From positions 17,150 to 81,149 of the forward strand of contig JBNGDS010000004.1 in the NCBI GenBank assembly GCA_049975365.1: a DNA stretch of 64,000 nucleotides, in the 5' to 3' direction. This DNA is from Desulfomonilia bacterium. GTDB lineage: Bacteria; Desulfobacterota; Desulfomonilia; UBA1062. Positions within the stretch are counted from its first letter, which is position 1; every line of letters begins with the position of its first letter. Both the position numbers and the translations under genes were made by a program. The notes beneath the pieces are model-generated. The model saw only the letters and a program-made list of their open reading frames with translations, searched no databases and was not told the DNA's origin. Below are positions 4,930-47,670 of the stretch, one piece after another.

Positions 4930-5066
4930 GATCTTCTCCCGGGGAGCTGAGTGAATCCGCTCGAAATCATTGTGTAAATAAGTTTGCAGGCTGAATAGGG
5001 GTGCTGTCGTGCACTCCCCCCCTGAATGAGACTATCTCCTGGGACTGAATCGAGAAAAAACCGCTG

Positions 5067-10479: not shown

Positions 10480-10547
10480 GGGTGAGCCTGCATTGGCACA
10501 TGCCGATCCGGGAGATGTTTTGACCGAAAGGGTGTGAAGGAGGATGT

Positions 10548-21846: not shown

Positions 21847-21852
21847 CTCTCA

Positions 21853-28347: not shown

Positions 28348-28524
28348 GGCTTCCCCCTTTTCATGCATGATATGATTGACAGTTCAGGTGTAGCGGTATG
28401 GGTAAGGTTTGTCAACATTGGGCAGATCATATCATAAAACAGTAATTACCAGGCACACCGCAACAGCCGGTATTCCAGCAGAATTCGTACCATTCGGCCG
28501 AGGATCGGAAGATCTGCGGCCGAA

Positions 28525-30878: not shown

Positions 30879-30888
30879 GTTCAGTCGT

Positions 30889-32022
30889 TTATTTGCCAAG
30901 ACTCTCGATGAATGCCTGTACACGGGTACGCAGCTGGCCTTCTCCTCCGGTGGCATATTCCCGCTCGAGTTTCAGGACCGGCACGCCTTTCTTTCTGAGT
31001 GCACTGACCAGGGGCATGGTATCCACTCCCCAGAGATCACAGAACTTGATGATCTCAATGACCACGCCGTCTGCACGGTATTCCTCTACTGTGTCGAGGA
31101 TGTTTTCCAGCCGGCGATCGAAGTCCTCCATCATGCGGGGGCACAGGGTCTTCTTGAACGTGTGCTCGGCCAGGCACCTGATGGGATGTACGCCTTGTTC
31201 CACAGGCATGAGCCCGGGAATGGACCCGGTGCAGAACCGGTCGGCCACCACGAGCCCTCCCTGTGATTCGATGATGGCGATGAATGCAGGATCGTGCAGA
31301 TGCGCCCCAACCATCATGAGGCGTGCACGGTAGTCAGCATTCCCTTCTTCGTGTTCGATCTCCCTGTAGAATGACTCGATGGCGGGGAGGATCAGATCCT
31401 TCGGAGATGCGAGGGATGCCATGACGATCCGGTGAAAATCAGCTCCAGTCAGGGGGGGATGCAGTCTTTTCCTCAGGTCGCCTATAGAACGCATGATGCT
31501 GGAGAACCTGTTCCACCGGTCTATGGCCTCCTCGATGGAAGCAGTGCCCATATTGACACCGAAATAGTCAGAGAGTTTCTCCGCCAGGATCGAGAGTTCA
31601 TCGGCAAGCCATGAAGTGGTGACGTCGTTCACCTTGCGCGGCACGTCGATGACGTGACTGAAAGCCGGCTTCCTGAGGTATTCGAGGTTGTCTATGAGGC
31701 GCTGCATGTGAGCGCACGAAGGCACGAAGACCCACCCCTGGATGAGATCGTACCGGTCGTCCATAACAAACTCGAGCAGGCTGCGGGTATACGAACAGGT
31801 CAGCGACGACATGTAGTTGTCGGCGATCTCGGTCCCGGCAATTCCAGGGGCCATCAGACGAACCGGAAAGAGCCTGTCTGCCATGAGCAGCGCCTCGGGC
31901 ACGAAGGAACAGGAATACCCAATGGGTATGCGGCAGTCCTGTGAGGCCTGTTCGACAAGGGTGTTCTGAGGGCTTTCCAGGAGATCATCGAACAGGTGCA
32001 TGGTCTTGGTAGGCATCCTCAC
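30889..32022 (-). CDS. 2-hydroxyacyl-CoA dehydratase superfamily subunit (HgdB/BcrC-like)
   Basis: N-terminal IGYSCSFVPEALLMADRLFP and C-terminal IKFCDLWGVDTMPLVSALRKKGVPVLKLEREY match the HgdB pattern (GCLPYYVPEEL ... FCDPEE...GIP). Confidence 0.75.
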   Translation of the reverse strand: MRMPTKTMHLFDDLLESPQNTLVEQASQDCRIPIGYSCSFVPEALLMADRLFPVRLMAPGIAGTEIADNYMSSLTCSYTRSLLEFVMDDRYDLIQGWVFVPSCAHMQRLIDNLEYLRKPAFSHVIDVPRKVNDVTTSWLADELSILAEKLSDYFGVNMGTASIEEAIDRWNRFSSIMRSIGDLRKRLHPPLTGADFHRIVMASLASPKDLILPAIESFYREIEHEEGNADYRARLMMVGAHLHDPAFIAIIESQGGLVVADRFCTGSIPGLMPVEQGVHPIRCLAEHTFKKTLCPRMMEDFDRRLENILDTVEEYRADGVVIEIIKFCDLWGVDTMPLVSALRKKGVPVLKLEREYATGGEGQLRTRVQAFIESLGK

Positions 32023-32037
32023 AGCTACGTTCTCCCC

Positions 32038-32808
32038 TTATGTCAGTACGCCCATGGTTTCGAGGATGTGTTCAACAACGCCCAGGGTGGGGGAGGTGTC
32101 CGGGAGCTCCCTTAAAGACGTTCCCCTGAAATCGAAATCCCTGATGAGGTCGTCCTCTGCAATCCATCCGTAGATGGGTAGACCGGTCCTCGATCTGATG
32201 TCATTCACCTCTGCCTGGCTCTTCACCCGGTTGAGCACGAGCCCCAGGCTCCTGAAATCAACGGCCTTGTTGTCATGCGCAACATGGGCTATGGCGCCAA
32301 CAACTCCTAGACCTTTGGCCGAGGTGTCCGAGATGAGTACCAGGTGATCGACGGTCTTCATGACTCGGCGGTTGATCTGCTCCACACCTGCCTCGCCGTC
32401 AATGATGACCACATCGAACGCATAAGCAAGTTCTACAAGGATGTCCTTGAGCAGTGAATTAACCTTGCAGTAGCACCCTTCATCCTCCGGCCTTCCGATG
32501 GCGAGCATGGCAAACCCGTCCTGCTCGTGAAGCGCATCGAACACCTCGTAGTCGAGCTGCCTCAGTGTCTGTGGCGCTCCCTGTGATGTGCCTTTTCTGA
32601 TCTGGGAGATAAGCCCCTTTCTTATGTCGTCCACGGTTTTCCGGACAACCACCCCAAGGGCCACGGCAAGGCCGCACGCCGGGTCCGCATCGATGGCCAG
32701 GATCTTCCTGTTCCCGTTTTCGCTCAGAAGCTTCACCATGACGGCTGCCACTGAGGTCTTGCCTACACCCCCTTTGCCGCACAGCGCGATTCTCGTGGTA
32801 TCACTCAT
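32038..32808 (-). CDS. CooC/MinD/Mrp-family P-loop ATPase (putative metallocentre or Fe-S maturation ATPase)
   Basis: Deviant Walker A (CGKGGVGKTSVAA) and the IDADP motif. Length and pattern resemble CooC/AcsF-type ATPases. Confidence 0.8.
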   Translation of the reverse strand: MSDTTRIALCGKGGVGKTSVAAVMVKLLSENGNRKILAIDADPACGLAVALGVVVRKTVDDIRKGLISQIRKGTSQGAPQTLRQLDYEVFDALHEQDGFAMLAIGRPEDEGCYCKVNSLLKDILVELAYAFDVVIIDGEAGVEQINRRVMKTVDHLVLISDTSAKGLGVVGAIAHVAHDNKAVDFRSLGLVLNRVKSQAEVNDIRSRTGLPIYGWIAEDDLIRDFDFRGTSLRELPDTSPTLGVVEHILETMGVLT

Positions 32809-33538
32809 TTCTTGCCTCTCTCTTCTTGCTCTGCATAGAAAGCCTCATGGATTTGAGCTGCTCCGCATCGGCACATACATCCTGGTATTCGCAGGATTCG
32901 CAGTCGAAATCGAGCTCGAGGGCCATCTTGTCCATGGCCGCAATGATCCTTGCAGCCGGGGCGACGATTTCGCGCAGCTCAGTAACATCTTCGGGTGACG
33001 AGGTGACCATGATCACTTCCACGGATTGGACATAGTCCCTGGCGTGGAACAGCCTCATGAGTGCCGATGCGAGTATCTGCGTTGAGAATCCCGACTGGAT
33101 CGCCTCCCTGCTGATTCTGCACCACTCCTTCTGGTACTGGGACACGGCCCTGATCATGAACCCCTTCAGATCGAGGTCGTAACGGAGAAAGTCCATGTCA
33201 CGGTGCCGATCGTAAGTATTCTCTTCAGTGAAGCCGACCACCCCTGCCAGGACCACCTTTCCGAAGGGCAATGCCGGGTTCCCGGTTTCAGTGAAATCCG
33301 GACCGACGAGGGTGATACGTCCGTGCGAGACTTCGGCCAGGTCTCCCGACCAGAGCAGACTGCTCACTGATTCCACATCAGGGCTTCCCAGCTCGAGGCC
33401 CAGGTCTTCTTTCATCACGATGCCCCTGTGGCCGCCAACGGGCCAGGTGAATGCGGGGTGCTCCGACCAGCAGCGTTTATTCGGACGGGACTCGATGAAG
33501 TCACGCACTTTGTGGATGATGTCTAAGAAGAGTTCCAT
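32801..33538 (-). CDS. Hypothetical protein with C-terminal CxxCx5C motif, co-transcribed with CooC-like ATPase
   Basis: 245 aa with C-terminal DFDCESCEYQDVCAD. 8-nt overlap with the CooC-like gene. I do not recognise a family. Confidence 0.5.
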   Translation of the reverse strand: MELFLDIIHKVRDFIESRPNKRCWSEHPAFTWPVGGHRGIVMKEDLGLELGSPDVESVSSLLWSGDLAEVSHGRITLVGPDFTETGNPALPFGKVVLAGVVGFTEENTYDRHRDMDFLRYDLDLKGFMIRAVSQYQKEWCRISREAIQSGFSTQILASALMRLFHARDYVQSVEVIMVTSSPEDVTELREIVAPAARIIAAMDKMALELDFDCESCEYQDVCADAEQLKSMRLSMQSKKREARNE

Positions 33539-33555
33539 GTTACCGGATACAGTTC

Positions 33556-34341
33556 CTAGCTGTCCCTTGCAGCCATCTCACGTGCCATGACAGCCGCCCC
33601 CAGGGCGCCGATGATCTGAGGGTCAGTCTCCATCTTCCTGAGTTTCACCCCAAGGGCCTCTTCAAGGGCGCTGAACATGCCGATATTCTTCGCTACCCCG
33701 CCGGTCATGGTGATTTCTCTGGAGAGCTCGATCCCCTTGGCAAGGGATGCGACCCGGTGCGCCATGGCCCTGTGGAGGCCGTGGATGATGTCGGGGATAT
33801 CTCTGCCGTTGTTGATGAGGGAGATGATTTCCGTCTCGGCAAACACAACGCACTGGTTGGAGATCGTCACGGGATTCCGTGCCTGGAATGAAAGTTCACC
33901 CATGTCCTCGAGGCATACACCCAAAGCACTTGCCATGATCTCGAGAAATCTCCCGGTACCGGATGCACATTTATCGTTGTAGGCATAGCGGATCACGTTC
34001 CCGTTCTCATCCAGCCGGATGGCCTTGGCATCCTGCCCTCCGATGTCGATGACCATGCGGACCTCCGGGATGAGCCACTGGGCGCCCATCCCGTGGCAGG
34101 CGATCTCGGATTCGACTGCAGTGGAAAATGGGATGTGGTTTCTTCCATATCCGGTTCCGACGCAGGATTTGATCTCGCTCAGCGGTATACCTGCCTGTGC
34201 AAGGGCTGCACCCATAACTTCCCGGGCAGATTCTTCCGGCTCGGGGCGGGCGAGAATGACTTCAGAGGCAACGATGTCTCCGTTTTTCATGATGACGGCC
34301 TTGGCACTCAGGGATCCAACATCACATCCTGCAACGTACAT
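33556..34341 (-). CDS. BadF/BadG/BcrA/BcrD-type ATPase (HgdC-like), paralog 2; candidate BcrD-position subunit
   Basis: YVAGCDVGSLSAKAV N-terminus, length 261 aa. Last gene of the C-B-A-D-ordered set. Confidence 0.85.
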   Translation of the reverse strand: MYVAGCDVGSLSAKAVIMKNGDIVASEVILARPEPEESAREVMGAALAQAGIPLSEIKSCVGTGYGRNHIPFSTAVESEIACHGMGAQWLIPEVRMVIDIGGQDAKAIRLDENGNVIRYAYNDKCASGTGRFLEIMASALGVCLEDMGELSFQARNPVTISNQCVVFAETEIISLINNGRDIPDIIHGLHRAMAHRVASLAKGIELSREITMTGGVAKNIGMFSALEEALGVKLRKMETDPQIIGALGAAVMAREMAARDS

Positions 34342-34345
34342 CTGT

Positions 34346-35125
34346 TCACCCTCCTATCTTCTCACGCGCATACACAGCCGCACCCAGGGCTCCGACGAGC
34401 TGCGGATCGATCCTCAGACGCCGCACCTTCACGTCGAGCATCCGCTCGAGGGCAGCAACGACACCGGCATTCTTTGCCACTCCACCTGTCATGCAGACAT
34501 CCTTTTCCACACCCACACTGCGGGCCAGGATCGCCACTCTGGCAGCCATGGCCTGGTTGACGGCGGATGCGATATCGGCCTTGGATCGTTTTTCATTCAG
34601 GTGGTGAATGACTTCGGCCTGGGCCCACACCGTGCAGGTCGATGCGAGGGAGAGCGGGTTTTTTGCCTGGTGTGAAAGCCTTCCCAGTTCATCGAGTTCA
34701 AGACCCAGTATATGTGCCATCACCTCGAGAAACCGGCCAGTTCCGGCAGCGCACTTGTCGTTGGTAAAGAACTTTACCACGCCGCCTTTCGCATCGAGTT
34801 TTATTGCCTTGCAGTCCTGTCCGCCGACATCGATGACGGTCCTCGCTGTAGGCATGAGCCATTGTGCGCCTTTCGCATGACAGGTAATCTCTGAGACAGC
34901 CGTGCTCACGAACGGAATCCGTTCCCGTCCATAGCCGGTTCCTACACAGAACGTGATCGTGTCCATGGAAAGGCCCGCAGACGAGAGAGCGGCTTCCATC
35001 ACCTCGCGGGCGGATGCTTCAGGGTTGAACCCAGACCTGATGATCGCCTGGGACAGAACCCGTTTATTGTTGAGAATGACTGCCTTGGTGGTCAGAGAAC
35101 CCACGTCACAACCGGCAACAATCAT
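34346..35125 (-). CDS. BadF/BadG/BcrA/BcrD-type ATPase (HgdC-like), paralog 3; candidate BcrA-position subunit
   Basis: MIVAGCDVGSLTTKAV, 259 aa. GAGGAGG RBS lies inside the upstream small ORF. 4-nt gap to paralog 2. Confidence 0.85.
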   Translation of the reverse strand: MIVAGCDVGSLTTKAVILNNKRVLSQAIIRSGFNPEASAREVMEAALSSAGLSMDTITFCVGTGYGRERIPFVSTAVSEITCHAKGAQWLMPTARTVIDVGGQDCKAIKLDAKGGVVKFFTNDKCAAGTGRFLEVMAHILGLELDELGRLSHQAKNPLSLASTCTVWAQAEVIHHLNEKRSKADIASAVNQAMAARVAILARSVGVEKDVCMTGGVAKNAGVVAALERMLDVKVRRLRIDPQLVGALGAAVYAREKIGG

Positions 35126-35365: not shown

Positions 35366-35608
35366 TTACAGGGTCATACTGATGCGTGCACCCTGCCTGA
35401 TCCTCTGGATATAGAGCTTCGAGCGCTCTTTCAGCACAACCATGTCCGTCTTGCGCTCGATGTACTGCAGTGCAGGGATGGCTTCTTCCCTGAACAGGGT
35501 CAGGCTGTCGATTGCCCGCTGCCGCTCCACCAGGACCCTGGAGCTGTCCATGGCAATGTTCTTCAAGACCTCGATTGCGATCGCTTCCTTCTCATTTTCC
35601 GTCTCCAT
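35366..35608 (-). CDS. Small hypothetical protein (80 aa), helical/charged
   Basis: AGGAGG RBS 6 nt upstream of ATG. Plausible composition. Sits between the HgdA-like and ATPase genes. Confidence 0.5.
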   Translation of the reverse strand: METENEKEAIAIEVLKNIAMDSSRVLVERQRAIDSLTLFREEAIPALQYIERKTDMVVLKERSKLYIQRIRQGARISMTL

Positions 35609-35727: not shown

Positions 35728-37131
35728 TCATGTGCCGAGCCCCCGCAGGTGTATGAACTCGCTTATTTTGTCGGTCACAGCTTCCCATGACTGGACACGG
35801 TCGTCGAACGCATCTGCATAGAGAATCAGGGTCGGGATTCCGCTGCGCTCGAGATCCCGGGCATAGGATTTGACCATTCCCCAGGTGTTCCTGCACCCGA
35901 TGGTCCCAAAATAGGCCACGAAGTCTGCCTTCATGACCCTGGTCATGATGAGCGTGTCGTCGAGCCACATGTTGGGCGCGTCATACGGGCCCCGGATGGA
36001 TTTCACCATGGGCATGCGTGACATCTGCATAGCGAGCGAATCGATCATGTCCTCGAGGGTGTCTCGTTTCATCGTGAACACGGCATCTTCCCGTTCACTG
36101 CTGTAGGGTGCCTCGTCTTCCCAGAAGGTGCTCAGGATGCAGCCCAGGTGCGAGATCTCGTTGCGGTCAAGAAAAGACCACAGCCTCAGGTCCGTGGTGT
36201 AGTGATCGATGTAGGAAAAAAACCCCCGGAGGCGTTCTCTCCCTGTGCTCATGCCGGAGACCCCTCTGGCGGCGTTCTCTTTGATCCTTTTCAGCATGGA
36301 CCGGAGCAGATCGGTGAAGTCTTTCGTCCCCCCCATGAGAAAGTTCCCGGAGTAGAGAAAGAGGTTGAAGATCGGGGGGATGGGGGAGGGGACAAGCCGC
36401 TGAAATTCTGTGAATTCATTGATGAGTTCGGTCTGAAGCTCGATCTCGGCAACGATCTCCCTGAGCCTGTCGATATCCAGTCTGTTCCCTGTCTGCTCCT
36501 CGAGAAAGGATACAAGATTCATGAAATCCTGCCTGTGAAACATGCCGGCCCGCTCATCGGTTAAAGTCGGGGGGTAGCAGAGCTGGTAGAAGGGGATATC
36601 AAGGTACGCGGAGGCGAACGAGTAGGAGTTGGCGTTCGTATCGCAGATGCCGGGTGAATCGCAGATGATCATGTCAGGTCTGACCCCGAGCCCCGCCAGA
36701 TATGCGCCGAGGGCACCGCGCTGTGATGAACAGGATGTCTCGGTGAATCCCACCTCGCAGCAGTAGTCAAGGTATTCCCCGGTTCCACGCTGGAGTATGA
36801 ACGTGCCGAACACGGTCATGGGCTCAAGCAGGAGTGGAACGATATCGAAGGCGTACAGGATCGGTGGAGCGAAGCAGAAGGTTGTCATGGCCACTTTTCT
36901 GCCGTTGTCATGGGCAGAGAGGATGGTTTGCAGATAGTTTGCGAGGAGTTTCATGAGCAGAATACCCGGTTCTCCCTGGCGAATGATGGCATCAAGGGCA
37001 TCACGGAAATGGGGGATGAGACTGAGCAGCGTCTCATACTCCTTGGATGAACCGTCGTAGGTAACAGAGGCGTTCTCGATGATGCTCCAGATGTTCCAGT
37101 CGTAATTGTACTCTCTGGTTTCCCGTTTCAT
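35728..37131 (-). CDS. Benzoyl-CoA reductase/2-hydroxyacyl-CoA dehydratase superfamily subunit (HgdA/BcrB-like)
   Basis: 467 aa. VAMTTFCFAPPILYAFDIVPL and multiple conserved Cys (CDSPGICDT) follow the HgdA/BcrB architecture. Confidence 0.8.
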   Translation of the reverse strand: MKRETREYNYDWNIWSIIENASVTYDGSSKEYETLLSLIPHFRDALDAIIRQGEPGILLMKLLANYLQTILSAHDNGRKVAMTTFCFAPPILYAFDIVPLLLEPMTVFGTFILQRGTGEYLDYCCEVGFTETSCSSQRGALGAYLAGLGVRPDMIICDSPGICDTNANSYSFASAYLDIPFYQLCYPPTLTDERAGMFHRQDFMNLVSFLEEQTGNRLDIDRLREIVAEIELQTELINEFTEFQRLVPSPIPPIFNLFLYSGNFLMGGTKDFTDLLRSMLKRIKENAARGVSGMSTGRERLRGFFSYIDHYTTDLRLWSFLDRNEISHLGCILSTFWEDEAPYSSEREDAVFTMKRDTLEDMIDSLAMQMSRMPMVKSIRGPYDAPNMWLDDTLIMTRVMKADFVAYFGTIGCRNTWGMVKSYARDLERSGIPTLILYADAFDDRVQSWEAVTDKISEFIHLRGLGT

Positions 37132-37148: not shown

Positions 37149-38282
37149 TTATGCAATCCTCTCCATGAAGGCATCCACGCGCATCTTAACCCTGCCTGTC
37201 TCAACCAGGGGACCGTATTCCCGTTCCATCCGCATACAAGGGATCCCGGCAGCCTCGAGGTCACGCTCGAAGATGCCGTTTTCCGAACCGTGGAGATCGC
37301 AGAAGCGTATGTTCTGCAGGATGACCCCGTCGATGCGGACCTCCTCTATCCGTTCCATGATGTAGGAGAGCCTGTCTCTGTAGCAGCCGAACATCCTGGG
37401 ACATGACTTGTGGCTGAGGTAGCGCTTCGCGAGGGCAAAGACAGGGTCTTCCTTCTCGTCAACGAGGTCCCGGTAGGACCGCGACCCGAAGCACATGGTG
37501 TCTGCCACCACGATGCCGCCGGATTCCTCGATCAGGCGGACAAATTCCAGGTCGTCGTTTGTGCTGCCCACGATCATGAGCCGTTTCCTGCCATCGAGAA
37601 CAGAGGGGGCCTCTTTGAGTTCAGAGATGACATTCTTAAGCAGGTCTGTATAGCGCTCCCTCGGCAGTGCAAACCCTGCGAGAATGACAGCCGTGGTATC
37701 CTCGCCGGTTATGGCAGGGGTATCAGATGCCCTCATCTCGTCGAGCTCGATGAGGAGTCTCCTTCCTTCGTTGTACAGTTTGATGGATTCTTTGAGTGCC
37801 TTCTTGGTGATCTTCACACCAAAGTGCTCCTCGATGCTCTTGATGAAGAGCTTCAGTTCGTCCACGAACCATGCAATGCTGTAGTCGGTCACCTTGTGTG
37901 GTACACCCATGTAGTGAAAGTATGAGGGCAGGACTCCGGGGTAGTCGTCTCCTGCCTTTCTCCAGCATTCGTCGAGCCTGCGCATGGAATCGCACCCGTT
38001 CATGATGATCGCCCCGTCGAGGAAGGTGTACGCACCTTGTCCGGCAAGCTGCAGGATGCACTTGGGAAAACTGCAGATAACCGGACCAAAGTAGGTGTCA
38101 CCGATGGACAGAGAGGTTGTCCCGATTCCGCGCATCCTGAAGGGCAGCATGCCTGCTGCGTGGATGATCTCTTCAGGCATATACGTGCACGGGTAGCCTA
38201 TGACCCTTTTCCCGGCATCCTTCCATTGGGTGACGTACTGGTTTGATATGCTCCGGGCGATGTCTTTGAGTTCGTTGATCAT
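37149..38282 (-). CDS. Benzoyl-CoA reductase/2-hydroxyacyl-CoA dehydratase superfamily subunit (HgdB/BcrC-like)
   Basis: 377 aa. VIGYPCTYMPEEIIHAAGMLPF ... IRFCDLHGSENGIFERDLEAAGIPCMRMEREYGP parallel HgdB (IGCLPYYVPEELVYAAGMVP ... FCDPEEMEYPDLKKALDAHHIP). Confidence 0.8.
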   Translation of the reverse strand: MINELKDIARSISNQYVTQWKDAGKRVIGYPCTYMPEEIIHAAGMLPFRMRGIGTTSLSIGDTYFGPVICSFPKCILQLAGQGAYTFLDGAIIMNGCDSMRRLDECWRKAGDDYPGVLPSYFHYMGVPHKVTDYSIAWFVDELKLFIKSIEEHFGVKITKKALKESIKLYNEGRRLLIELDEMRASDTPAITGEDTTAVILAGFALPRERYTDLLKNVISELKEAPSVLDGRKRLMIVGSTNDDLEFVRLIEESGGIVVADTMCFGSRSYRDLVDEKEDPVFALAKRYLSHKSCPRMFGCYRDRLSYIMERIEEVRIDGVILQNIRFCDLHGSENGIFERDLEAAGIPCMRMEREYGPLVETGRVKMRVDAFMERIA

Positions 38283-39565
38283 CTCTCACCCCCGGCGGCG
38301 AGCAGCACCTCTCTCAGACGCTGCAGTGCCTGGTCGTGTTCTTCATCTGCCATCCCTTCCCCGGGGCTCAGCACATCGGTGAGTCCTCGGACCAGAGAGG
38401 GCATCACTGCTTCGAGAACAGGACGGGCTGCATCGATAATTTCTGGAACGAACCACCGGGCAGTCTCCTTGACCTGATCCGGATCAACACAGTCAGCGAT
38501 GCTGTTCACGATGGTGGTGAGCATCTCGGGTCTGGTGTCATGAAGCGTGTTGACAAGGCGGAGAAACCCATTGATCACCTCGGCTATCTCGAAGGTGTCC
38601 AGGTCGGACAGGCCGTGTGCGAGAGCCTCTGCAAGAGCATTTCCGTCCACTTCCTCGAAGAGACGAACCTTTCGGGAAAGACCCCTGATTGCAGGTGTTT
38701 TCACAGACCCGTAAGCAGACACGAGCTCGATGAGGATTCCCGGGTTCTCCGACAGAGAGTCTGCCAGCGCATGGACCATGGCCTCCTTGTCTTCGGAAAG
38801 GGCGATACGGGCCTTCTTCAAAAGGACAGGATCGATATTCGGGAGTGCATCCTGGAACTGCTGGGTGAGGTACAGCTGGAACAGTGGTTTTCCTGCCTTT
38901 GCCAGGAGGTAGTTTCCTGTATGGAGTCTCCTGATGAGTTCACTCATCGAATTGACCAGGGTGGCTGCCTCACGGGCATCGATCCCTTTCAGCAGCGAGA
39001 GGGTGAGGTCTGCGAGCAGGTCTGGGCCCACCTTCTGTTCAATGGGGCGCAGGAGTTCTCGTACAGACCTGATGCCGGTATTGACAAGGGCGAGGAGCGT
39101 TGCCAGGATGCTCCCGACCTTGGCAGGGTATCTCCACAGGTGCTCGTTGAAGATCTCTACTGTCTTGAGGAAACACCCTTGTGACGATTCAGCAACCTCC
39201 CTGATCTCGCCGAAATCAGTGTTCTTCAGGAAGTCTTCGATAGCTTGTGAACGGCCGGCGGCATGGTACACCGGGTTGGATGCGTGCTCTGCGTTCACCT
39301 TTCGCGCCCACGAGGTGAGCAGACTGCCTACAGGCCCTGATATTCCCCTTCCAGAAACCCCTCCCGGATGGATTAACACCCGTGAGACGATCCGTTGCGC
39401 ACCGGAGGCGATCCGCTCCCTGGTTCTCCTTCCTGAAGCCCAGCCCCTGATCAGTTCTCCGGCAATGGAAGAGAGGAAGTATCTGGTGCCCGGAGACCGT
39501 ACGATGTCTGCAACGATCTTTGCCGAAGCTTCAGCGGGTGGCCCGAGATGTTCAGTGGTGTCCAT
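38279..39565 (-). CDS. Hypothetical protein, long member (428 aa) of a three-member paralogous family of unknown function
   Basis: Shares a roughly 130 aa region (FLKNTDFGEIREVAES...LWRYPAKVGSILATLLALVNTGIRSVRELL) with the 228 aa and 143 aa proteins downstream. 4-nt overlap with the HgdB-like gene. Confidence 0.5.
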   Translation of the reverse strand: MDTTEHLGPPAEASAKIVADIVRSPGTRYFLSSIAGELIRGWASGRRTRERIASGAQRIVSRVLIHPGGVSGRGISGPVGSLLTSWARKVNAEHASNPVYHAAGRSQAIEDFLKNTDFGEIREVAESSQGCFLKTVEIFNEHLWRYPAKVGSILATLLALVNTGIRSVRELLRPIEQKVGPDLLADLTLSLLKGIDAREAATLVNSMSELIRRLHTGNYLLAKAGKPLFQLYLTQQFQDALPNIDPVLLKKARIALSEDKEAMVHALADSLSENPGILIELVSAYGSVKTPAIRGLSRKVRLFEEVDGNALAEALAHGLSDLDTFEIAEVINGFLRLVNTLHDTRPEMLTTIVNSIADCVDPDQVKETARWFVPEIIDAARPVLEAVMPSLVRGLTDVLSPGEGMADEEHDQALQRLREVLLAAGGER

Positions 39566-40235
39566 GAATGGAGTCCTCCGTTTTTGTATGTATCTGTTTC
39601 TGAAGCGCTTTCATTCCCGCTTCGGTCAGGTATGATTCGAACATGGTCATACTCCCGTCAGTGAGTGTACTGATCGCATCCTCCCTGGTGAATTGTTCTT
39701 CCATGAGGTAGCTGTGTCCCAGGTGCATGGCCATGCCCACTACCGCATAGGCAAGGGTATGGGGATTCACTCCCTCGATGATGCCGATATCCAGCCACGT
39801 CTGGATATCGTTGGCCAGATCCCGGGCAATATCGCTGTAATGACGCCACACATTGTTGTCCAGTTCCTCGTCGACCCCGAAACTGCCCCTCAGGAGGATG
39901 AGAAACTGCTGGCGGTGGCCATCGATGTAATCGAAGTAGGCGGTAAATGTCTCGATGAGTTTGGCGTAGCGGTCGTCCCTGTCCCAGATATTCACGGGCT
40001 CTCTGAGTTTCCTGATCCGATCCCTGAAGTCTTCGAAGTTCTGCCTGGTTATCTGGGCAAAGAGTTCACGTTTGTCCTGGAAGTAGTTGTAGAATGTCCC
40101 TGCAGACATCCCCACCTTCTTGACAATGTCCATGACTTGAGTGTTGTGGTAGCCACGCTGGCTGAAGAGTTCCTCGGCAGCCTCTATGATCACCTCTTTG
40201 GTAAAGGTCCGTTTCTTGTCGGCCAGGGTTGGCAT
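39552..40235 (-). CDS. TetR/AcrR-family transcriptional regulator (paralog A)
   Basis: HTH region FSQRGYHNTQVMDIVKKVGMSAGTFYNYFQDKRELF. Start placed at ATG (MPTLADKK) after AGAAAGGAA. Paralog of the regulator at 44289-44954. Confidence 0.85.
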   Translation of the reverse strand: MPTLADKKRTFTKEVIIEAAEELFSQRGYHNTQVMDIVKKVGMSAGTFYNYFQDKRELFAQITRQNFEDFRDRIRKLREPVNIWDRDDRYAKLIETFTAYFDYIDGHRQQFLILLRGSFGVDEELDNNVWRHYSDIARDLANDIQTWLDIGIIEGVNPHTLAYAVVGMAMHLGHSYLMEEQFTREDAISTLTDGSMTMFESYLTEAGMKALQKQIHTKTEDSIHGHH

Positions 40236-40261
40236 GTCTGGTTCCTTTCTGTTCGCGGATT

Positions 40262-40948
40262 TCACGAACACTCCCAGCGGCGTATGTCCACGTGGTGTGT
40301 CTCTTTCCCAAATCGCCTTCGGATTCTCCTGCGCACGAGTTCCAGCACCCATGATCCGAACTTCCACTTCTGGTCCAGGAGCCCATCGGCAAGGGTGTGG
40401 GTTGCCGTTCCGATCTCGTGCCGGTCGAGACCTGCGAGCAGGTCTGAGAGAAACGTGCGGACGATGCCGGGCTCAGCGGTTTCGAGGGCATTGATTACCC
40501 TGGCCATGGAGTTGATGCCCTGGCTGAGGGACACAGGGCCTGTTTTCGTAATGGATGCTCTCATACTCTCCCGCTGAACGGTAGATGATGTCCACAGGCC
40601 CCCCAGCAGTTCCGACCACGTGTGCGAGCAGGCTTTCAGCCTCTCTGTGTCGATCTCGGAAGCGATGCTCAGAATGAAATGGCTCAGGAGTTCGGGTGGA
40701 AACTTCTCCTTGAGCTGTTCCCCCATCTCTGCACACGCATCCACCAGGGTATTGACCAGAGAGGGAAGGGCGCTGACCAGGGAGAGAAAGACCTCAGGGT
40801 CCTGCCACATGATGCTCCTCACCAATGAACTTCCCGAAGAGGACGTGGCCATTTTCAGACATGATCTGAGCTGATCCTTGCAGACCGGTGTCCTGAGAAC
40901 CTCTGTGAGAATACCGGGATCGATTTTTTTGCTCTGAGTGCTCGTCAT
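40262..40948 (-). CDS. Hypothetical protein, 228 aa member of the paralogous family
   Basis: Contains MWQDPEVFLSLVSALPSLVNTLVDA, closely matching LLWQDPEVILGLVGALPALANIVICA in the 143 aa paralog. Confidence 0.5.
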   Translation of the reverse strand: MTSTQSKKIDPGILTEVLRTPVCKDQLRSCLKMATSSSGSSLVRSIMWQDPEVFLSLVSALPSLVNTLVDACAEMGEQLKEKFPPELLSHFILSIASEIDTERLKACSHTWSELLGGLWTSSTVQRESMRASITKTGPVSLSQGINSMARVINALETAEPGIVRTFLSDLLAGLDRHEIGTATHTLADGLLDQKWKFGSWVLELVRRRIRRRFGKETHHVDIRRWECS

Positions 40949-41376
40949 GACGTCACCTCCCTGGGAGATTTCCCGGGCCCCTCAAGGGATTGGAATTTCT
41001 GTGCGACGATCGGGGATATCTGTTCGATGAGTGTTCGGCTCGAGCTCACGGCCCGGGCAAGGGTTTCGTGATCGATCTCATCGAGGAGGGATTCGATGAA
41101 CCCGTTCAGGAGCACGGGAGAGTATTTCTCTGTGACCTGCCTGACAAGCTCGTCGAGTGCGCAGATCACGATGTTTGCCAGAGCGGGGAGTGCACCCACA
41201 AGCCCGAGGATCACCTCGGGATCCTGCCAGAGCAGGGTTTTCACGAACTCCGGGCTGGCCTGGGGGTCGAGGTTTTTCAGGAACGCCCTCAGGTTGTCCT
41301 TGAAACCGGGCTTTTTCAGCAGTTCTTCAAGAATACGAGTGCCTGCATCGACAATGCCTCGTTCCTGGGTATGCAT
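40945..41376 (-). CDS. Hypothetical protein, 143 aa member of the paralogous family
   Basis: FLKNLDPQASPEFVKTLLWQDPEVILGLVGALPALAN. 4-nt overlap with the downstream paralog. Confidence 0.5.
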   Translation of the reverse strand: MHTQERGIVDAGTRILEELLKKPGFKDNLRAFLKNLDPQASPEFVKTLLWQDPEVILGLVGALPALANIVICALDELVRQVTEKYSPVLLNGFIESLLDEIDHETLARAVSSSRTLIEQISPIVAQKFQSLEGPGKSPREVTS

Positions 41377-41388
41377 GATCTGTACTCC

Positions 41389-42663
41389 TTACAGCGTCTC
41401 GCAGTTGAAGAAATAGCGGGCCGCCTCCATCTGACAGAGCTGTTTGCCTCCCATCCAGAGCTGGACCATCTTGATGTCTCTCCAGTGTTTCTCGATATCC
41501 CACTCGCGATCTGCTCCATTCTGTCCGAGAGCGTCCATGGCCTTTCCGAAGACATCCACCGCCCTGTCCGACACGAAGTCCTTGATGTTCCGCACTCTCC
41601 CCACAACGTCTTCGCTGATCAGGGGTTTTCCGTAAGGCTTGTTCCTCCGGTCGCAGATCATGGCCGCCTCGTATCCGAGGATTCTGCAGATGTCGATATC
41701 ACCTGCAATACGGCCGATGATGGCCGCTATTGCATCGTGTTCCTTCAGGGGACGGTTGTTGTACGTTCGTGTGGACACGAATTCATAGAGCCGTTCATAG
41801 AGGTTCATCATGGCACCGGTGAGAAATGCGACACTCATGACCTGGCCGAACGGGATGAGTTGGTAGAATGCCTCGGCATCCCTGCCCGGGCCGTGGGCCC
41901 GGTACCAGGACGGCACGCGCACGTCCTCGAACCAGATGTCACCGTTCTTGTCAGCGGCCATCCCGGCCTTTTCATATGCCCCGCCCTGGGTCACTCCCTT
42001 GGCATCGGCAGGGACGTAGATGAATGCAAAATCCTTCGGGTCGTCCGATCCGGGATTCGTCGTGCACGGAACACCAAAGAGCTGCGAGACACCCCCTGAA
42101 TTCGTGGGCCAGAGCTTGTGGCCGTTGATTACCCACTCATCGCCTTCCAGGCGCGCTGTTGTGCGGATGGTCTTCCCCTTGAGCAGGCCGAGGTTTTCGA
42201 TATCGGACCCGCCCTGGGGTTCGGTCATGGCGTTGGCGGCAAATACCGCTTTCTTCGAGGTGCAGAACATGGGTGCGAATTCAGCGATGAGCCTGTCGTT
42301 CACGTAGGGTTCGACGAGGATCACAAGCATGGGCCAGAATGTGACCCCCAGGGCAACCGCAAAGCCGGTATCTGCCCTGCCGAGCTCTTCGCAGAGCATG
42401 TAGCCGACCCTGAACACTGAATCGGAACCGGCGAGACCCCACCCGCCGTATTCCTGGGGAAAGAGGGCCTTCTGGAGACCGATCTCTCCCATGAGCCTGT
42501 CAAAGGCGGGTTCGATGAGGGCGTGATCCTTCCAGTCTTCATCATACTTGCGCCTGTGCGGCATGATGATTTCTTCAAGGAAACCCCTCAGGACAGCTCG
42601 AAAGTGCTTGTCGAACGGGGAAATATATTCATCCGGGCGTGAGAATTCATCGATATGGTTCAT
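41389..42663 (-). CDS. Acyl-CoA dehydrogenase family protein (paralog 1)
   Basis: Start placed at ATG (MNHIDEFSRPDEY) with GGGAGAG RBS; the 89-codon upstream extension in the track has no RBS and is Gly/Arg-rich. Shows the ACAD N/M/C domain pattern. Confidence 0.85.
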   Translation of the reverse strand: MNHIDEFSRPDEYISPFDKHFRAVLRGFLEEIIMPHRRKYDEDWKDHALIEPAFDRLMGEIGLQKALFPQEYGGWGLAGSDSVFRVGYMLCEELGRADTGFAVALGVTFWPMLVILVEPYVNDRLIAEFAPMFCTSKKAVFAANAMTEPQGGSDIENLGLLKGKTIRTTARLEGDEWVINGHKLWPTNSGGVSQLFGVPCTTNPGSDDPKDFAFIYVPADAKGVTQGGAYEKAGMAADKNGDIWFEDVRVPSWYRAHGPGRDAEAFYQLIPFGQVMSVAFLTGAMMNLYERLYEFVSTRTYNNRPLKEHDAIAAIIGRIAGDIDICRILGYEAAMICDRRNKPYGKPLISEDVVGRVRNIKDFVSDRAVDVFGKAMDALGQNGADREWDIEKHWRDIKMVQLWMGGKQLCQMEAARYFFNCETL

Positions 42664-42677
42664 GGCTTCTCTCCCTT

Positions 42678-43913
42678 TCAGATCTCTGTGCAGGCATTGA
42701 AAAACCGGCTGGTATCCATTCTGACCGGGCCCTCTGCTCCCACACCGGACAGCAGTGAGCCTATGGTTTTGACATCCCTCCAGTGCTTTTCTACGTGCCA
42801 TTCCTTGGAATAGCCCGCCGAACCCATGAGTTCCATTCCGCGGTTGATCGCCCTCAGGATGCCCTGCTGCACTCGGCACCCGATCATCTCCGCATAGGTG
42901 AACAGGTGAAGCAAACTGACCTGTCCCCATTCATCCGGTTTGGAGATGAGGTGAGCCAGATTGTACAACAGGAGCCGTGCAGTCGCGATCTCGTCCGCAG
43001 CATCGGCAAGCACAGATGCACAGAGAGGATTTTCCTTCAGGAGGCCGCCGCCCTTGATCACCCTGTTCTCGCTCCAGTCGCGGAAAATCTCGTAGGAGTT
43101 GATGCCTGCCCCGAGACTCACCCCGGAGAGCAGCAGGTTGAGCCAGGTGAAGAGCTCTTCCACTACGCCGTCACGGTCGATGAGGAATTCTTTCCCGATC
43201 TCCACGTCACTGAAGGTGACATCGGCATTCTCCAGGGCATTGAGGCCTGTTGTTTTGAAGGTCTTTCCCCGTTTGACACCAGGGGCATCACCAGGAATGA
43301 ACGCGATGCATGGTTTGTCCTTCTTTCCGGCGCAGACCACACAGAACATGTCTGCACGGGCGCCTGCAACAAGCGGCCTGAGGGTTTTCCCGGAGATGAC
43401 GTACCCACTTTTGACCGACTGTGCACGGGCAAGAATGGATCTTCCTTTGTACAAGGGGGTGTCCTGTCCAACGAACCCCGCACCGGGCAGGATGAGCGTG
43501 GGTGTCTTGATCTCGTCCGCCGTGTACAGGGGAGCCAGGGCATCGCAGAGTTTTCTGTTCAGGGTGTGACCCATGGTGATGGTGGCAAAGATCACATACT
43601 TGATGGCGGATGAAACCCCCATGGCTGCATCGGCCCTGCCGATCTCGCTTACAATCGTGAGCACGCCTGGTGCGTTCGCTGGGCTGTTCCACCCGAATCC
43701 GCCGTGTGTTGTTGGAAGCGTGAGCCTCTGGAGGCCGATTGTGAGGTTGAGCTGTTTCCGTTTATCCAGGAAGAGCTTTCCGTAGTTCTCGCGGTAGTCC
43801 ATCCGTTTCGAGAGGATCTCTTTTTCCGCCCACTGCCGTACCAGGTCAGAGACACTTCTGGATTCATCATCCATCCACTGCCTGGGGAAAAGAAACAGAT
43901 CGTCTGGATTCAT
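42678..43913 (-). CDS. Acyl-CoA dehydrogenase family protein (paralog 2)
   Basis: 411 aa ACAD fold. Its C-terminal tail (RFFNACTEI) resembles that of paralog 1 (YFFNCETL). First structural gene of the cluster. Confidence 0.85.
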   Translation of the reverse strand: MNPDDLFLFPRQWMDDESRSVSDLVRQWAEKEILSKRMDYRENYGKLFLDKRKQLNLTIGLQRLTLPTTHGGFGWNSPANAPGVLTIVSEIGRADAAMGVSSAIKYVIFATITMGHTLNRKLCDALAPLYTADEIKTPTLILPGAGFVGQDTPLYKGRSILARAQSVKSGYVISGKTLRPLVAGARADMFCVVCAGKKDKPCIAFIPGDAPGVKRGKTFKTTGLNALENADVTFSDVEIGKEFLIDRDGVVEELFTWLNLLLSGVSLGAGINSYEIFRDWSENRVIKGGGLLKENPLCASVLADAADEIATARLLLYNLAHLISKPDEWGQVSLLHLFTYAEMIGCRVQQGILRAINRGMELMGSAGYSKEWHVEKHWRDVKTIGSLLSGVGAEGPVRMDTSRFFNACTEI

Positions 43914-44288: not shown

Positions 44289-44954
44289 CTACTCCATGCC
44301 CTGAGACTGTCGGTGCTGCTCCAGCACCTTTTTCCCTTCGTTTGTGAGGTATGCCTCGAACATGGCGAGCACCATCTTGATCAGGTTTTCAATGATCACG
44401 TCGCGGGAAAATTTCTTTTCCATGAGATAGCTGTGAATGAGCTGCAGGCTCATGCCGATGACTGCCGTTCCGAACAGCATGGGATCGATCCCCTCGATGA
44501 CGCCGTCCTTGATCCATTTCTCGATGTCCTCACCGGCGTCCTGGGCGAACCCCTGGAAGTAATTCCACACATTCCAGTCCAGGGCAGTATCCACCCCGTA
44601 GCTCCCCCGCAGGATCATGAGGAGTTGCTGGGGATTGTTGTCAACGTAGTCGAAGGCTGCATTGAAGGTTTTCAACAAGGTCTGGGCCCGCTCATCAGGA
44701 TTCCAGATGTCAACCGGCTGCCGCATGAGTTTCACGGTCACCCGAAGGCTCTCCAGGCTTTCCATGGTAATCTGTTCAAAGAGCTCCCGCTTGTCCTTGA
44801 AGTGATTGTAGAACGTCCCGGCAGACATTCCCACGGCCTTCACGATATCCATGACCTGGGTGTTGTGGTATCCGTATTTGCTGAACAGCTCGCAGGCCGC
44901 GTTGATGATCTTTTCCCGGGTTTCTTCCTTTCTCTTTTCAGACCCTCTGGACAT
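44289..44954 (-). CDS. TetR/AcrR-family transcriptional regulator (paralog B)
   Basis: FSKYGYHNTQVMDIVKAVGMSAGTFYNHFKDKRELF is almost identical to the HTH of paralog A. The track's first codon is GTG; the start is set at the in-frame ATG (MSRGSEKRK). Confidence 0.85.
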   Translation of the reverse strand: MSRGSEKRKEETREKIINAACELFSKYGYHNTQVMDIVKAVGMSAGTFYNHFKDKRELFEQITMESLESLRVTVKLMRQPVDIWNPDERAQTLLKTFNAAFDYVDNNPQQLLMILRGSYGVDTALDWNVWNYFQGFAQDAGEDIEKWIKDGVIEGIDPMLFGTAVIGMSLQLIHSYLMEKKFSRDVIIENLIKMVLAMFEAYLTNEGKKVLEQHRQSQGME

Positions 44955-45378
44955 GATTTTTTCCACACGTCAAATATACGGAATTTGTTGTCATTTTGTA
45001 TGGCGAAAGTGCTGGCATGTCAAGGAAATACTTGTGAATACAGCTGAAAACACTCCGGAATTCAGAAAGGGAAGATGACATCCCCTGCTGCTGACTAGCA
45101 ATCGATCCGTGCACGGCTACACGAACAGGGAGCATCGGATTAATCCGGCAGATTATCCTCCCCAGCAGAGGGGCCACATATCTTGAAATGGTCTAAGAAC
45201 AAGGAATAGTGTCTGTTTTGGCCCTCGGGTGAGTGCACGAATCCAGGGGTGTGATTAACCCTTCTGATTCACGCTCGTTTTTGATTTTCCACGCTGGACG
45301 ACATATTGAAAGTATGGTACTCACTACAAGGATCACAGGGAATATCTCAATAAAAATTTTGTGAATGGGAGGAAATCT

Positions 45379-46140
45379 ATGAGGCGTTTTGGATTCATTT
45401 TCGCACTGGTTCTGACTCTTGGTGTGTGCATGATGGCACTGGTGCCCGGTCAGGCACGTGCTGCAGACATGAAGACAATCGTGGTGGCAACGGATGCTAC
45501 CTGGCCGCCCATGGAAATGCTCGATGCCAACAAGAACATCGTGGGATTCGATATCGATTTTCTGAATGCGGTTGCCAAAGAGGCCGGATTCAAAGTCGAG
45601 TACAAGAACACCGCGTGGGACGGCATCTTCGGGGGGCTTGACCTGGGCAAGTATGACGCGGTGATTTCATCGGTCACCATCACCGAGGAACGACAGAAGA
45701 CATTCGACTTCTCTCTGCCCTACATCAATGCAGGACAGGTGCTCATTGTTCCAAGGGATCTGAAAGGGGTGACCACCCTTGCAGACATGAAGGGGAAGAA
45801 AGTCGGCGCCCAGATCGGCACTACAGGGTCAATGGAAGTGAAGAAGGTCGATGGCATCGAGCTCAAGAATTACGACGAGATCGGACTCGCATTCGAGGAC
45901 ATGGCTTCAGGCAGGATCCAGGGCGTCGTGTGTGATACCCCGGTTGCAGCAGACTATGCGCTCCAGAGGGCAGAGTACAAGGAAAAGTTCATGATCGTGG
46001 GTGAGCCTTTCACCGAGGAGAGCTACGGGATCGTGGTGAAGAAGGGCAACCAGGAACTCCTCGACCTCCTCAACAAGGGAATCAAGGCTGTACAGGCCAA
46101 AGGCATCGATAAAGAGCTCGAGAAGAAGTGGCTGCGCTAA
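45379..46140 (+). CDS. Polar amino-acid ABC transporter substrate-binding protein (PBP type 3)
   Basis: GGGAGGAAA RBS plus ATG (MRRFGFIFALVLTLGVCMMALVPGQARA signal peptide). Family 3 SBP pattern. Confidence 0.85.
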   Translation: MRRFGFIFALVLTLGVCMMALVPGQARAADMKTIVVATDATWPPMEMLDANKNIVGFDIDFLNAVAKEAGFKVEYKNTAWDGIFGGLDLGKYDAVISSVTITEERQKTFDFSLPYINAGQVLIVPRDLKGVTTLADMKGKKVGAQIGTTGSMEVKKVDGIELKNYDEIGLAFEDMASGRIQGVVCDTPVAADYALQRAEYKEKFMIVGEPFTEESYGIVVKKGNQELLDLLNKGIKAVQAKGIDKELEKKWLR

Positions 46141-46934
46141 AGACCAAACCAAAGAAAGAAGAACACAAAAAAGTTACCATTGATGTCGGCGACGGGGCCG
46201 CCATCCCCAAGAAAGAGGATGTCGGCCTCTTCACGGCCTGGCGGGTGGCATTCTTCGGTGCCATTGCCGTCATCGCCTACCTCGCGATCTTCAAACAGGA
46301 CCCATATCTGGCCATCATGAAATTCGTACCGGACGGGATCCTGGTCACCTTCCAGGTCACGGTCCTGTCAATCATCCTTGCCTTGGGCATTGGCCTGTTC
46401 ACCGGGCTCGGGAGGATCTCCAAGAACCCCCTCATCAACGGCATCGCCTCGCTCTACGTGGAGGTGATCCGGGGTATCCCGCTGCTTGTCCAGCTTTTCT
46501 ATATCTACTTCGCCCTTGGTCGCATCATCCAGATGCCGCCCATGACCAGTGCGGTGCTTGCCATGGCAATTTGCTACGGGGCATACATGGGTGAAATATT
46601 CAGGGCTGGAATTCAGTCCATTTCCAAGGGGCAGACCGAGGCGGCGCGCTCACTGGGTATGACCCCGGCACAGTCCATGTACCATGTCATTCTGCCGCAG
46701 GCGGTCAAGACCATTCTTCCGCCCGTCGGGAATGAGTTCGTAGCCCTGCTGAAAGACTCATCCCTCGTGTCAATCCTGGCGGTGGCAGACCTGCTGCGCA
46801 GGGGAAGGGAGTTTGCGGCAGAGAGCTTCGCGTACTTCGAGACATACACAGTGGTGGCGCTGGTCTACCTCATCATTACCCTGTTCCTGTCCAAGCTCGT
46901 GAGCATCCTGGAGGAGAAGATCGGTGCAGAATAA
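46128..46934 (+). CDS. Amino-acid ABC transporter permease (HisM/GlnP family)
   Basis: EAA-loop region ([20 protein letters not shown]) and 5 TM segments. Confidence 0.85.
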
Positions 46935-47670
46935 TATCCGCAGGAAAATGGTTGAGATGAACGGGGTGTACAAGATCTACGGCACCCTGAAGGCACTGGA
47001 CAATGTCTCTCTCGATGTCTATGACGGCGAAAAGGTGGTGATCATCGGTCCGAGCGGTTCGGGCAAGAGCACCCTGCTTAGGTCCATCAACAAGCTTGAA
47101 GAGGTGGACAGGGGGACCATCATCGTGGACGGGTATGAGATCAACGACCCCAAGACCAACATCAACAAAGTGAGGGAAGAGGTGGGCATGGTCTTTCAGC
47201 AGTTCAACGTTTTTCCCCACAAGACCGTGCTCCAGAATCTCACACTGGCCCAGGTCGTGGTGAGAAAGCGCCCGAAGAGCGAAGCTGAAAATATCGCCAA
47301 AGAGCTTCTGAAAAAGGTCGGTATCCTCGAGAAGCTCAACGAATACCCGACCAAGCTCTCGGGAGGCCAGCAGCAGCGCGTTGCAATCGCCCGAGCGCTG
47401 GCCATGCAGCCGAAGCTCATGCTCTTCGACGAGCCGACCTCGGCCCTCGATCCGGAGATGATCGGTGAGGTGCTCGATGTCATGATCAAGCTCGCAAAAG
47501 AGGGCATGACCATGATCGTGGTGACCCACGAAATGGGTTTCGCCCGCGAGGTGGCAGACCGTGTCATCTTCATGGACGAGGGCAAGATCCTGGAGGAGGG
47601 CTCCCCCGAACACTTCTTCAAGAATCCAACCCACGAACGTGCCCAGCAGTTCATGAGGCAGATCCTGTAG
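46924..47670 (+). CDS. Amino-acid ABC transporter ATP-binding protein (GlnQ/HisP-like)
   Basis: Walker A (GPSGSGKST), signature ([15 protein letters not shown]) and Walker B ([11 protein letters not shown]). Confidence 0.9.

Follow-up and report, generated by a model that had tools for sequence, protein, structure and literature searches.

Three paralogous, predicted all-helical proteins of an orphan family accompany BCR I/HAD-type and acyl-CoA dehydrogenase genes in a Desulfomonilia operon

The genes described here lie in a 64,000-nt stretch of DNA from a Desulfomonilia bacterium (contig JBNGDS010000004.1). We refer to the whole stretch as the window, and coordinates are positions within it. 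Our subject is a trio of genes, named A, B and C, whose exact sequences are annotated as "hypothetical protein" (ACP5G0_01215, _01225 and _01230) in a Desulfomonilia metagenome-assembled genome (MAG). All three open reading frames (ORFs) picked out by an initial annotation are present on the minus strand (Table 1), and the layout was as described there. The trio sits between a pair of acyl-CoA dehydrogenase (ACAD) genes, ACAD1 and ACAD2, and an HGD-D/BcrAD module starting with HGDa1, and a TetR gene (TetR1) lies between B and A. C and B are joined by a 4-nt ATGA stop/start overlap, and an ATGA stop/start overlap also joins A to HGDa1. C is preceded by an aaggag ribosome-binding site 7 nt upstream, which immediately trails the ACAD2 stop codon, and is separated from ACAD2 by an 11-nt gap. 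Measured against two orthologous loci, the ratio of nonsynonymous to synonymous substitution (dN/dS) of the trio genes was 0.21-0.29, with C at 0.21. Together with conservation across the ~110 loci described below, these values rule out spurious ORFs; A, B and C are genuine genes under purifying selection.

The three proteins had been proposed to be paralogous, and both pairwise and profile comparisons bore this out. By BLASTP, B and C shared 42% identity across 106 aa (E 4e-25). Residues 104-214 of A matched C at 31% (E 8e-9), while residues 143-218 matched B at 29% (E 6e-8). Profile-profile alignment of the A and B families with hhalign gave probabilities of 97.5-98% over 200 columns (E 1e-11 to 1e-13). 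The similarity is far above chance, and judged by sequence the trio are true paralogues. The motifs thought to unite them were shared less evenly. The LWQDPEV pattern is literal in C only, as B starts MWQDPEV and A has a loose counterpart, LWRYPAKVGSILATLLALVN. Likewise, both C (FLKNLD) and A (FLKNTD) carry FLKN.D, which B lacks (CLKMAT).

A shared unit does underlie what had been described as a triplicated domain, but it is a repeat, and its carriers fall into two separately conserved sub-modules. The common unit is helical and spans ~75-110 aa; C has one copy, B has two, and A has two or more. A domain hidden Markov model (HMM) recovered one unit in C, a strong and a weak unit in B, and a strong and weaker units in A. 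Internal duplication was detected by hhalign in the A family (profile columns 146-267 against 274-383; 88% probability, E 3e-6) and more weakly in the B family (54%). B corresponds to residues ~104-218 plus 324-385 of A. Two parts of A have no counterpart in B, ~100 aa at the N-terminus and an insert in the middle; the rest of A aligns along the entire length of B.

AlphaFold2 modelled A as an all-helical protein of 20 helices, with a mean predicted local distance difference test (pLDDT) score of 80 and a predicted template modelling (pTM) score of 0.64. The model of B was also all-helical yet poor (pLDDT 61). No signal peptide or transmembrane segment was found in A, B or C, and grand average of hydropathy (GRAVY) values of ~0 mark them as predicted soluble proteins. 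Their calculated pI values are 5.8, 8.3 and 5.1. In the A family, whose length stays at ~427 aa across lineages, 12 columns are invariant and ~40 are nearly so; many of these hold polar residues. Conserved residues of A include D117, Y146, K149, E209, R212, R213, H215, T216 and D323, and its conserved motifs are NTDFGEI.EMVE, LWKYPAKVG, GPDLLAD and EL.RR.HTG. In B, the C-terminus is conserved, basic and amphipathic (LDQKW..SW.L.L.RRRIRKRFG), and one cysteine is invariant. A and C lack a conserved cysteine, and no Cys/His cluster or CxxC-type motif was seen among the conserved columns of the three families.

The initial annotation could not assign the trio to a family, and neither profile nor structure searches placed it in one. 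This orphan status covers the libraries searched: Pfam, NCBIfam, PHROGs, and the PDB by profile and by Foldseek. A and B had no match in Pfam, and NCBIfam returned only noise (E of 0.17 or more). When 63 aligned A-family members were scanned singly against Pfam, no consistent family emerged; none appeared in more than four members and none was significant. Ten long family members were also without a significant Pfam domain, and no PHROG matched the trio proteins. Foldseek returned nothing below an E of 5 from the PDB, where profile searches produced no match beyond the marginal or compositional. The HGD-D (PF06050) and BcrAD_BadFG (PF01869) domains of the neighboring enzymes are absent from A, B and C. 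A JGI label of "phage-related protein" on one homologue was rejected, given the lack of a PHROG match. Given the libraries searched, we rate A, B and C as new in family and fold status; the claim does not extend to a new mechanism.

Among known architectures, alpha-solenoid adaptors (HEAT/ARM-like proteins, the AP-1/AP-2 beta trunk, designed helical repeats) resemble the trio in being all-alpha, cofactor-free, and built of tandem units in variable number. A marginal PDB match connected residues 307-396 of A with the AP-1/AP-2 beta trunk (E 0.03, 16 bits). However, no significant sequence or structure match ties the trio to these adaptors, and its unit of ~75-110 aa with several helices differs from the two-helix HEAT repeat of 40 aa. 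HEAT, ARM and TPR families of Pfam had no match in A, B, C or the 63 A-family members (among the best 25 of 54 families listed).

The family is well populated. When 1.84 billion representatives of 50%-identity clusters were searched exhaustively by HMMER with a B+C profile, 516 clusters matched at E <= 1e-3, of which 295 reached E <= 1e-10. A word search found only 3 close homologues of C. At the least, such a family merits a domain-of-unknown-function entry. Across it, the number of units ranges from 1 to at least 4, and some members are fusions. C-B fusion proteins of 354-386 aa, from several representative clusters, occupy the same operon slot as the separate genes, and a fused C-B gene (~360 aa) is present in 8 metagenome loci. 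In proteins of 460-600 aa, a C-like unit is followed by the A core. For example, P0175 is C-like over residues 2-109 and matches the A profile over residues 113-468 (2e-152).

To follow the trio across genomes, we ran the A profile against the genomes of 185,579 species, which yielded 57 loci. Exact-protein look-ups added more, including cultured Desulfatibacillum alkenivorans AK-01, and the window proteins were mapped onto all ORFs of these genome loci. A second, independent set of 54 metagenome loci was retrieved with the B+C profile (termed A3). The total of ~110 loci spanned Desulfomonilia, Syntrophales/Smithella, Desulfobacterales and Spirochaetota. Hosts in the genome scan were Desulfomonilia, Syntrophaceae/UBA1062, Smithella/Smithellaceae, Desulfobacteraceae, Desulfatibacillaceae and Spirochaetota MAGs, and included the phosphite oxidizer Phox-21.

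Gene order at these loci was close to invariant. HGDa1 directly followed A in 57 of 58 informative genome loci and in all 22 metagenome loci, in line with the earlier view of the trio as fixed in its operon. To the question raised there, whether homologues always neighbor HgdAB/BCR-like genes, the answer is yes. The two genes overlapped by 4 nt in 37 of 57 genome loci. C directly followed ACAD2 in 33 of 33 genome loci, and B directly followed C in 32 of 33. In the metagenome set, ACAD2 stood just before the first C/B gene in every case (42 of 42), and TetR1 or A came after C/B in 35 of 36. Even P0122 (593 aa), a relative of A at 22% identity, keeps the same neighborhood. Loci lacking the ACAD pair carry A alone, as in AK-01 (L001) and Smithellaceae (L003, L035). 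These A-only loci and the adjacency counts therefore define two sub-modules, one of A with the HGD-D/BcrAD enzyme and one of C-B with the ACAD pair. TetR1 preceded A in 33 of 60 genome loci and was missing from 12, where B directly precedes A; lacking from roughly one in three loci, it is a dispensable, variable insert.

Enzymes of the BCR I/HAD family (class I benzoyl-CoA reductase, BCR; 2-hydroxyacyl-CoA dehydratase, HAD; double-cubane cluster protein, DCCP) carry out some of the hardest reductions and dehydrations of anaerobic metabolism. To our knowledge, characterized members have no components besides HGD-D-type core subunits and ASKHA ATPases. They share with the present operon an overall logic in which an Fe-S enzyme driven by ATP performs radical chemistry on CoA esters, and the family includes BzdNOPQ, MbdONQP, HadBC with HadI, and DCCP with DCCP-R. 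The HGD-D genes coupled to A belong to this family, and the surrounding enzyme system is a new version of the BCR I/HAD kind. The nearest solved relatives of HGDa1 are HadC (2e-45), BzdN (2e-42), DCCP (5e-33) and MbdN, while HGDb1 is very divergent. NCBIfam equivalogs for BCR, HAD and DCCP all scored far below their cut-offs for this operon. Behind the first HGD-D pair come two distinct ATPase genes, an arrangement like that of class I BCR; the second pair, like HAD, has one activator. Compared with its relatives, the operon adds a CdhC-N-domain protein, a CooC-type ATPase, paired ACADs and, in many loci, a third HGD-D copy. Going by the solved structures and the recent structural paper on the family, which names BCR, HAD, DCCP and TudS as members, the characterized enzymes have no subunit resembling A, B, C or the 80-aa product of a further operon gene (PMC11971306). 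A term search of the same paper returned no mention of an extra subunit (PMC11971306).

The CdhC-like protein (245 aa) resembles CdhC, the beta subunit of acetyl-CoA decarbonylase/synthase (ACDS; PDB 9c0s_E, E 1e-5), over no more than the first ~160 residues of that subunit, and has a C-terminal CxxCx5C motif. Its gene is paired with that of the CooC/MinD-type ATPase, directly after the two BcrAD ATPases. CdhC-like and CooC-like genes are present in 39 and 37 loci, respectively. They may form a metallocluster maturation pair, an unusual and undescribed companion of a BCR/HAD-type enzyme.

Heteromeric alpha2beta2 ACADs are encoded by adjacent genes elsewhere, for example mycobacterial FadE26-FadE27, and are not known to have helical partner proteins. 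ACAD1 and ACAD2 are similar in being two adjacent, divergent ACAD genes with a TetR gene nearby. Unlike FadE26-FadE27, they are always trailed by C and B, either as separate genes or fused. Scored with ACAD profiles, ACAD1 is strongly degenerate; its phmmer matches in the PDB were weak, and those of ACAD2 moderate.

Given this gene context, the trio proteins are probably accessory subunits of a kind not described before. More specifically, we tentatively read them as cofactor-free accessory or adaptor subunits, A of the ATP-dependent BCR-like enzyme and C·B of the presumed heteromeric ACAD. They would be soluble, all-alpha helical-repeat proteins serving as dedicated, non-catalytic adaptors or scaffolds of the neighboring enzyme modules. 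A would be made together with the HGD-D core of the BCR I/HAD-type radical enzyme and would bind this core. C and B would form a heteromer structurally equivalent to A, with the A equivalent split into two chains, and would bind the heteromeric ACAD. A and C·B might also touch, which would tie ACAD to the BCR-like enzyme and let a CoA-ester intermediate pass from one to the other within a single assembly. Contact between the units is plausible because they are paralogous and are fused in other genomes. Enzyme binding, C·B heteromerization, and bridging or channelling are all steps that we infer.

Several observations favor an adaptor role. Strict adjacency persists over deep divergence, down to 22% identity, and the association is module-specific, as the A-only loci demonstrate. 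The Rosetta-stone fusions, the alignment of B with A, the helical models, the GRAVY values of ~0, the lack of a signal peptide, transmembrane segment or conserved Cys/His cluster, and the dN/dS values point the same way. The stop/start overlaps of A with HGDa1 and of C with B suggest co-translation with the partner. Other observations weigh against it. Evidence for protein-protein contact is indirect, and among 120 A homologues and the 10 long members, none was fused to an HGD-D or ACAD domain. The invariant polar residues of A would equally suit a ligand site or an active site. The solved BCR, HAD and DCCP enzymes work without such a subunit, as far as the PDB matches and a term search of the structural paper indicate (PMC11971306). 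Finally, operon membership cannot tell a permanent subunit from an assembly factor. An electron-transfer adaptor was among the roles first suggested. With a bound cofactor, this role is disfavored because no Cys/His ligand motif is conserved; no matching Pfam domain was found either, and the models are all-helical.

The same synteny and translational coupling would be expected if the trio were transient chaperones, assembling or maturing the HGD-D and ACAD complexes or keeping the apo-enzymes open until a cluster or flavin is inserted. At the HGD-D enzyme, their partner in this work would be the CdhC-like/CooC-like pair, whose presence in the operon does suggest a dedicated maturation system. 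Small all-helical assembly chaperones such as RbcX are known, but RbcX itself matched C below every threshold (E 0.16; 12.7 bits against a Pfam cut-off of 27) and was rejected. Moreover, the paralogues would serve an Fe-S enzyme and a flavoenzyme alike, unlike a cofactor-specific maturase, and the many invariant and near-invariant columns of A are more typical of a permanent interface or ligand site. We consider a chaperone role rather unlikely. Carriage of a ligand is unlikely as well. Here, the trio would be helical bundles akin to apolipoprotein, phasin, HsbA or ACBP, binding the acyl-CoA or hydrophobic substrate of the pathway and bringing it to ACAD and the BCR-like enzyme. Amphipathic all-helical repeats, the invariant basic and aromatic residues of A (Y146, K149, R212, R213, H215), and the many host lineages that degrade hydrocarbons or fatty acids (Smithella, Desulfatibacillum) fit such a role, as do two weak profile matches. 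One is that of profile A3 to PDB 5j5k (E 2.4e-4, 145 columns), a bona fide member of the fungal HsbA family (PF12296, 2.6e-31). The HsbA/Mp1p-type proteins are helical bundles of similar size, but they are eukaryotic and secreted, whereas the trio are cytoplasmic bacterial operon proteins. The match was lost with a broader, 101-sequence profile (A4), hhalign gave only 26%, and PF12296 matched none of A, B and C; homology to HsbA or a lipid-binding bundle was rejected, and we take the match as due to chance or composition. The other match, to apolipoprotein A-IV (E 4e-4), lies in the poorly conserved C-terminal part of A4. Like those to coronavirus spike HR1 and designed bundles, it is heptad-like, appears compositional, and falls in the least conserved part of the profile. 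Pfam profiles for phasin, apolipoprotein and ACBP found nothing in A, B or C at E <= 1, and no lipid-binding Pfam family was among the best 25 of 54 families listed for the 63 A-family members. An apolipoprotein domain trace (E 0.032) was confined to one distant family member. The conserved neighboring transporter is of the polar amino-acid type and does not point to a lipid substrate.

The sharp motifs of A, with their invariant acidic, basic and hydroxyl residues (NTDFGEI.E, LWKYPAKVG, GPDLLAD, RR.HTG), and its fixed length across lineages could also belong to a new all-alpha enzyme acting on a CoA ester, such as an isomerase, hydratase or lyase, perhaps with B and C included. This is very unlikely: most of these motifs are not common to B and C, repeats in variable number are unusual for an enzyme, and there is no likeness to any enzyme fold. 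The position of TetR1 between B and A, together with its 4-nt overlap with A in several related loci, raises the further idea that the trio are regulatory partners of TetR repressors, for example anti-repressors or co-sensors. Isolated weak matches to TetR_C (E 0.05-0.1) occur in single family members, but they are non-significant and inconsistent among members. TetR1 is missing from 12 genome loci, including Smithella, with A, B and C unchanged, the constant neighbors are enzymes rather than regulators, and no DNA-binding motif was found in the trio proteins. We regard a regulatory role as highly improbable.

An extension of the adaptor reading places the trio as the frame of a super-complex that docks the heteromeric ACAD, via C·B and A, onto the ATP-dependent BCR I/HAD-type enzyme. 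This would physically link the flavin-dependent oxidation of a CoA ester to ATP-boosted Fe-S radical chemistry, with direct channelling of the intermediate or hand-over of electrons without electron-transferring flavoprotein (ETF) or free ferredoxin. We hold this to be decidedly unlikely. If true, it would represent a new class of BCR/HAD radical enzyme, with adaptors of a new fold and a CdhC-like/CooC-like maturation pair. Should A, B and C simply be subunits, they would define a new architectural class within the BCR I/HAD family, and the WQDPEV/LWKYPAKVG unit would offer a simple sequence signature for metagenome searches. Obligate extra components in so widespread, and uncharacterized, a BCR-like system would surprise specialists in anaerobic radical enzymes, and the cultured host AK-01 makes the question testable.

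Table 1. Features of the operon and its surroundings, listed in order of descending position in the window
Feature	Position (nt)	Strand	Remarks
Polar amino-acid ABC transporter	45361-47670	+	SBP_bac_3-like binding protein, permease, ATPase; divergent from TetR2
TetR2	44289-44966	-	Heads operon; Pfam TetR_N 1.4e-17; position conserved
ACAD1	42678-43913	-	Acyl-CoA dehydrogenase (Pfam); upstream partner of C-B
ACAD2	about 41389-42666	-	Acyl-CoA dehydrogenase (Pfam); upstream partner of C-B
C	40945-41376	-	143 aa; one-unit member of orphan helical-repeat family
Repeat unit in C (aa 13-121)	41014-41340	-	Domain HMM independent E-value (iE) 2.9e-47; contains FLKNLD and LWQDPEVILGLVGALPALAN
B	40262-40948	-	228 aa; two-unit member
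Repeat unit in B (aa 11-124)	40577-40918	-	Domain HMM iE 6e-53; contains MWQDPEVFLSLVSALPSLVN
TetR1	39552-40235	-	Between B and A; Pfam TetR_N 1.9e-18 and TetR_C_46
A	38279-39565	-	428 aa; multi-unit member
Best-conserved unit in A (aa 143-215)	38921-39139	-	Domain HMM iE 1e-9 and BLASTP against B and C; contains LWRYPAKVGSILATLLALVN
HGDa1	37149-38282	-	Pfam HGD-D 2.8e-92 / 5.6e-43 for the HGDa1/HGDb1 pair
HGDb1	35728-37131	-	HGD-D; partner of HGDa1
80-aa ORF	35366-35608	-	Family unassigned; orthologues in 36 loci
BcrAD/HgdC-type ATPase	34346-35125	-	Pfam BcrAD_BadFG (pair: 2e-60, 1e-56); NCBIfam CoA_E_activ
BcrAD/HgdC-type ATPase	33556-34341	-	Pfam BcrAD_BadFG; NCBIfam CoA_E_activ
CdhC-N-domain-like protein	32801-33538	-	Conserved downstream operon member
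CooC/MinD-type ATPase	32038-32808	-	Conserved downstream operon member
Second HGD-D pair	30889-32022 and 29352-30956 (HGDb2)	-	Domain matches
Single activator BcrAD ATPase	28525-29340	-	After second HGD-D pair
Enoyl-CoA hydratase	27535-28368	-	Operon member
ADP-forming CoA ligase	26039-27538	-	Operon member
Radical SAM protein	25107-26057	-	Operon member
Sensor, kinase and glycohydrolase genes	20842-24731	-	Beyond operon
HMG-CoA reductase; TRAP transporter (DctM, DctP); D-2-hydroxyacid dehydrogenase and thiamine pyrophosphate (TPP)-dependent enzyme	1777-3045, 3101-6110, 9499-12089	-, -, +	Elsewhere in window

Two start sites in Table 1 differ from those of the longest ORFs. For TetR1, an ATG start at 40235 (MPTLADKK) is most likely because the 271-aa longest ORF (39552-40367) would run into B. 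The 513-aa ORF of ACAD2 (41389-42930) is a longest-ORF artefact that overlaps ACAD1 by ~250 nt; orthologues of ACAD2 are 424 aa long, and the real start therefore lies near 42666.

The 80-aa ORF is flanked by the second HGD-D gene on one side and the first BcrAD ATPase on the other; in related loci it sometimes separates the two HGD-D genes. It had no Pfam, NCBIfam or PHROG match and carries a sharply conserved motif, AERQRAIDALTLFRE ... RKTD..VLKER..LYIQRIK. It probably encodes a further small subunit of the BCR-like enzyme. In AK-01 (CP001322, 6.036-6.057 Mb), three consecutive HGD-D genes follow A (ACL06569.1 / WP_015949606.1), which also has two BcrAD genes in its neighborhood. A gene for a GMC-family FAD oxidoreductase-like protein lies just upstream of TetR-A-HGD-D in 14 loci including AK-01, mostly without ACAD, C and B. 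The described aryl-CoA reductase clusters, among them the naphthalene thn operon, were rejected as context since their gene content differs (PMC12016498), and a literature search on this operon found no paper.

Downstream of the BCR-like module, the second HGD-D pair has a HAD-like arrangement, with one activator-type ATPase and without an A-like partner. HGDb2 (534 aa) has a long N-terminal extension. The operon is closed by the radical SAM gene, whose product has a DUF3463-like C-terminal region and which recurs after the CoA ligase or hydratase gene in at least two related loci (L026, L029). The three ABC transporter genes adjoin the operon in 14-17 related loci, a conserved neighbor that hints at an amino-acid-like operon substrate. 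Beyond the operon are genes for a 634-aa sensor with four PAS domains, a 338-aa protein with a histidine-kinase ATPase and a receiver domain, and an ADP-ribosylglycohydrolase. The D-2-hydroxyacid dehydrogenase and TPP-dependent enzyme could supply 2-hydroxy or 2-oxo acids to a HAD-type pathway, but their genes are 25 kb away.

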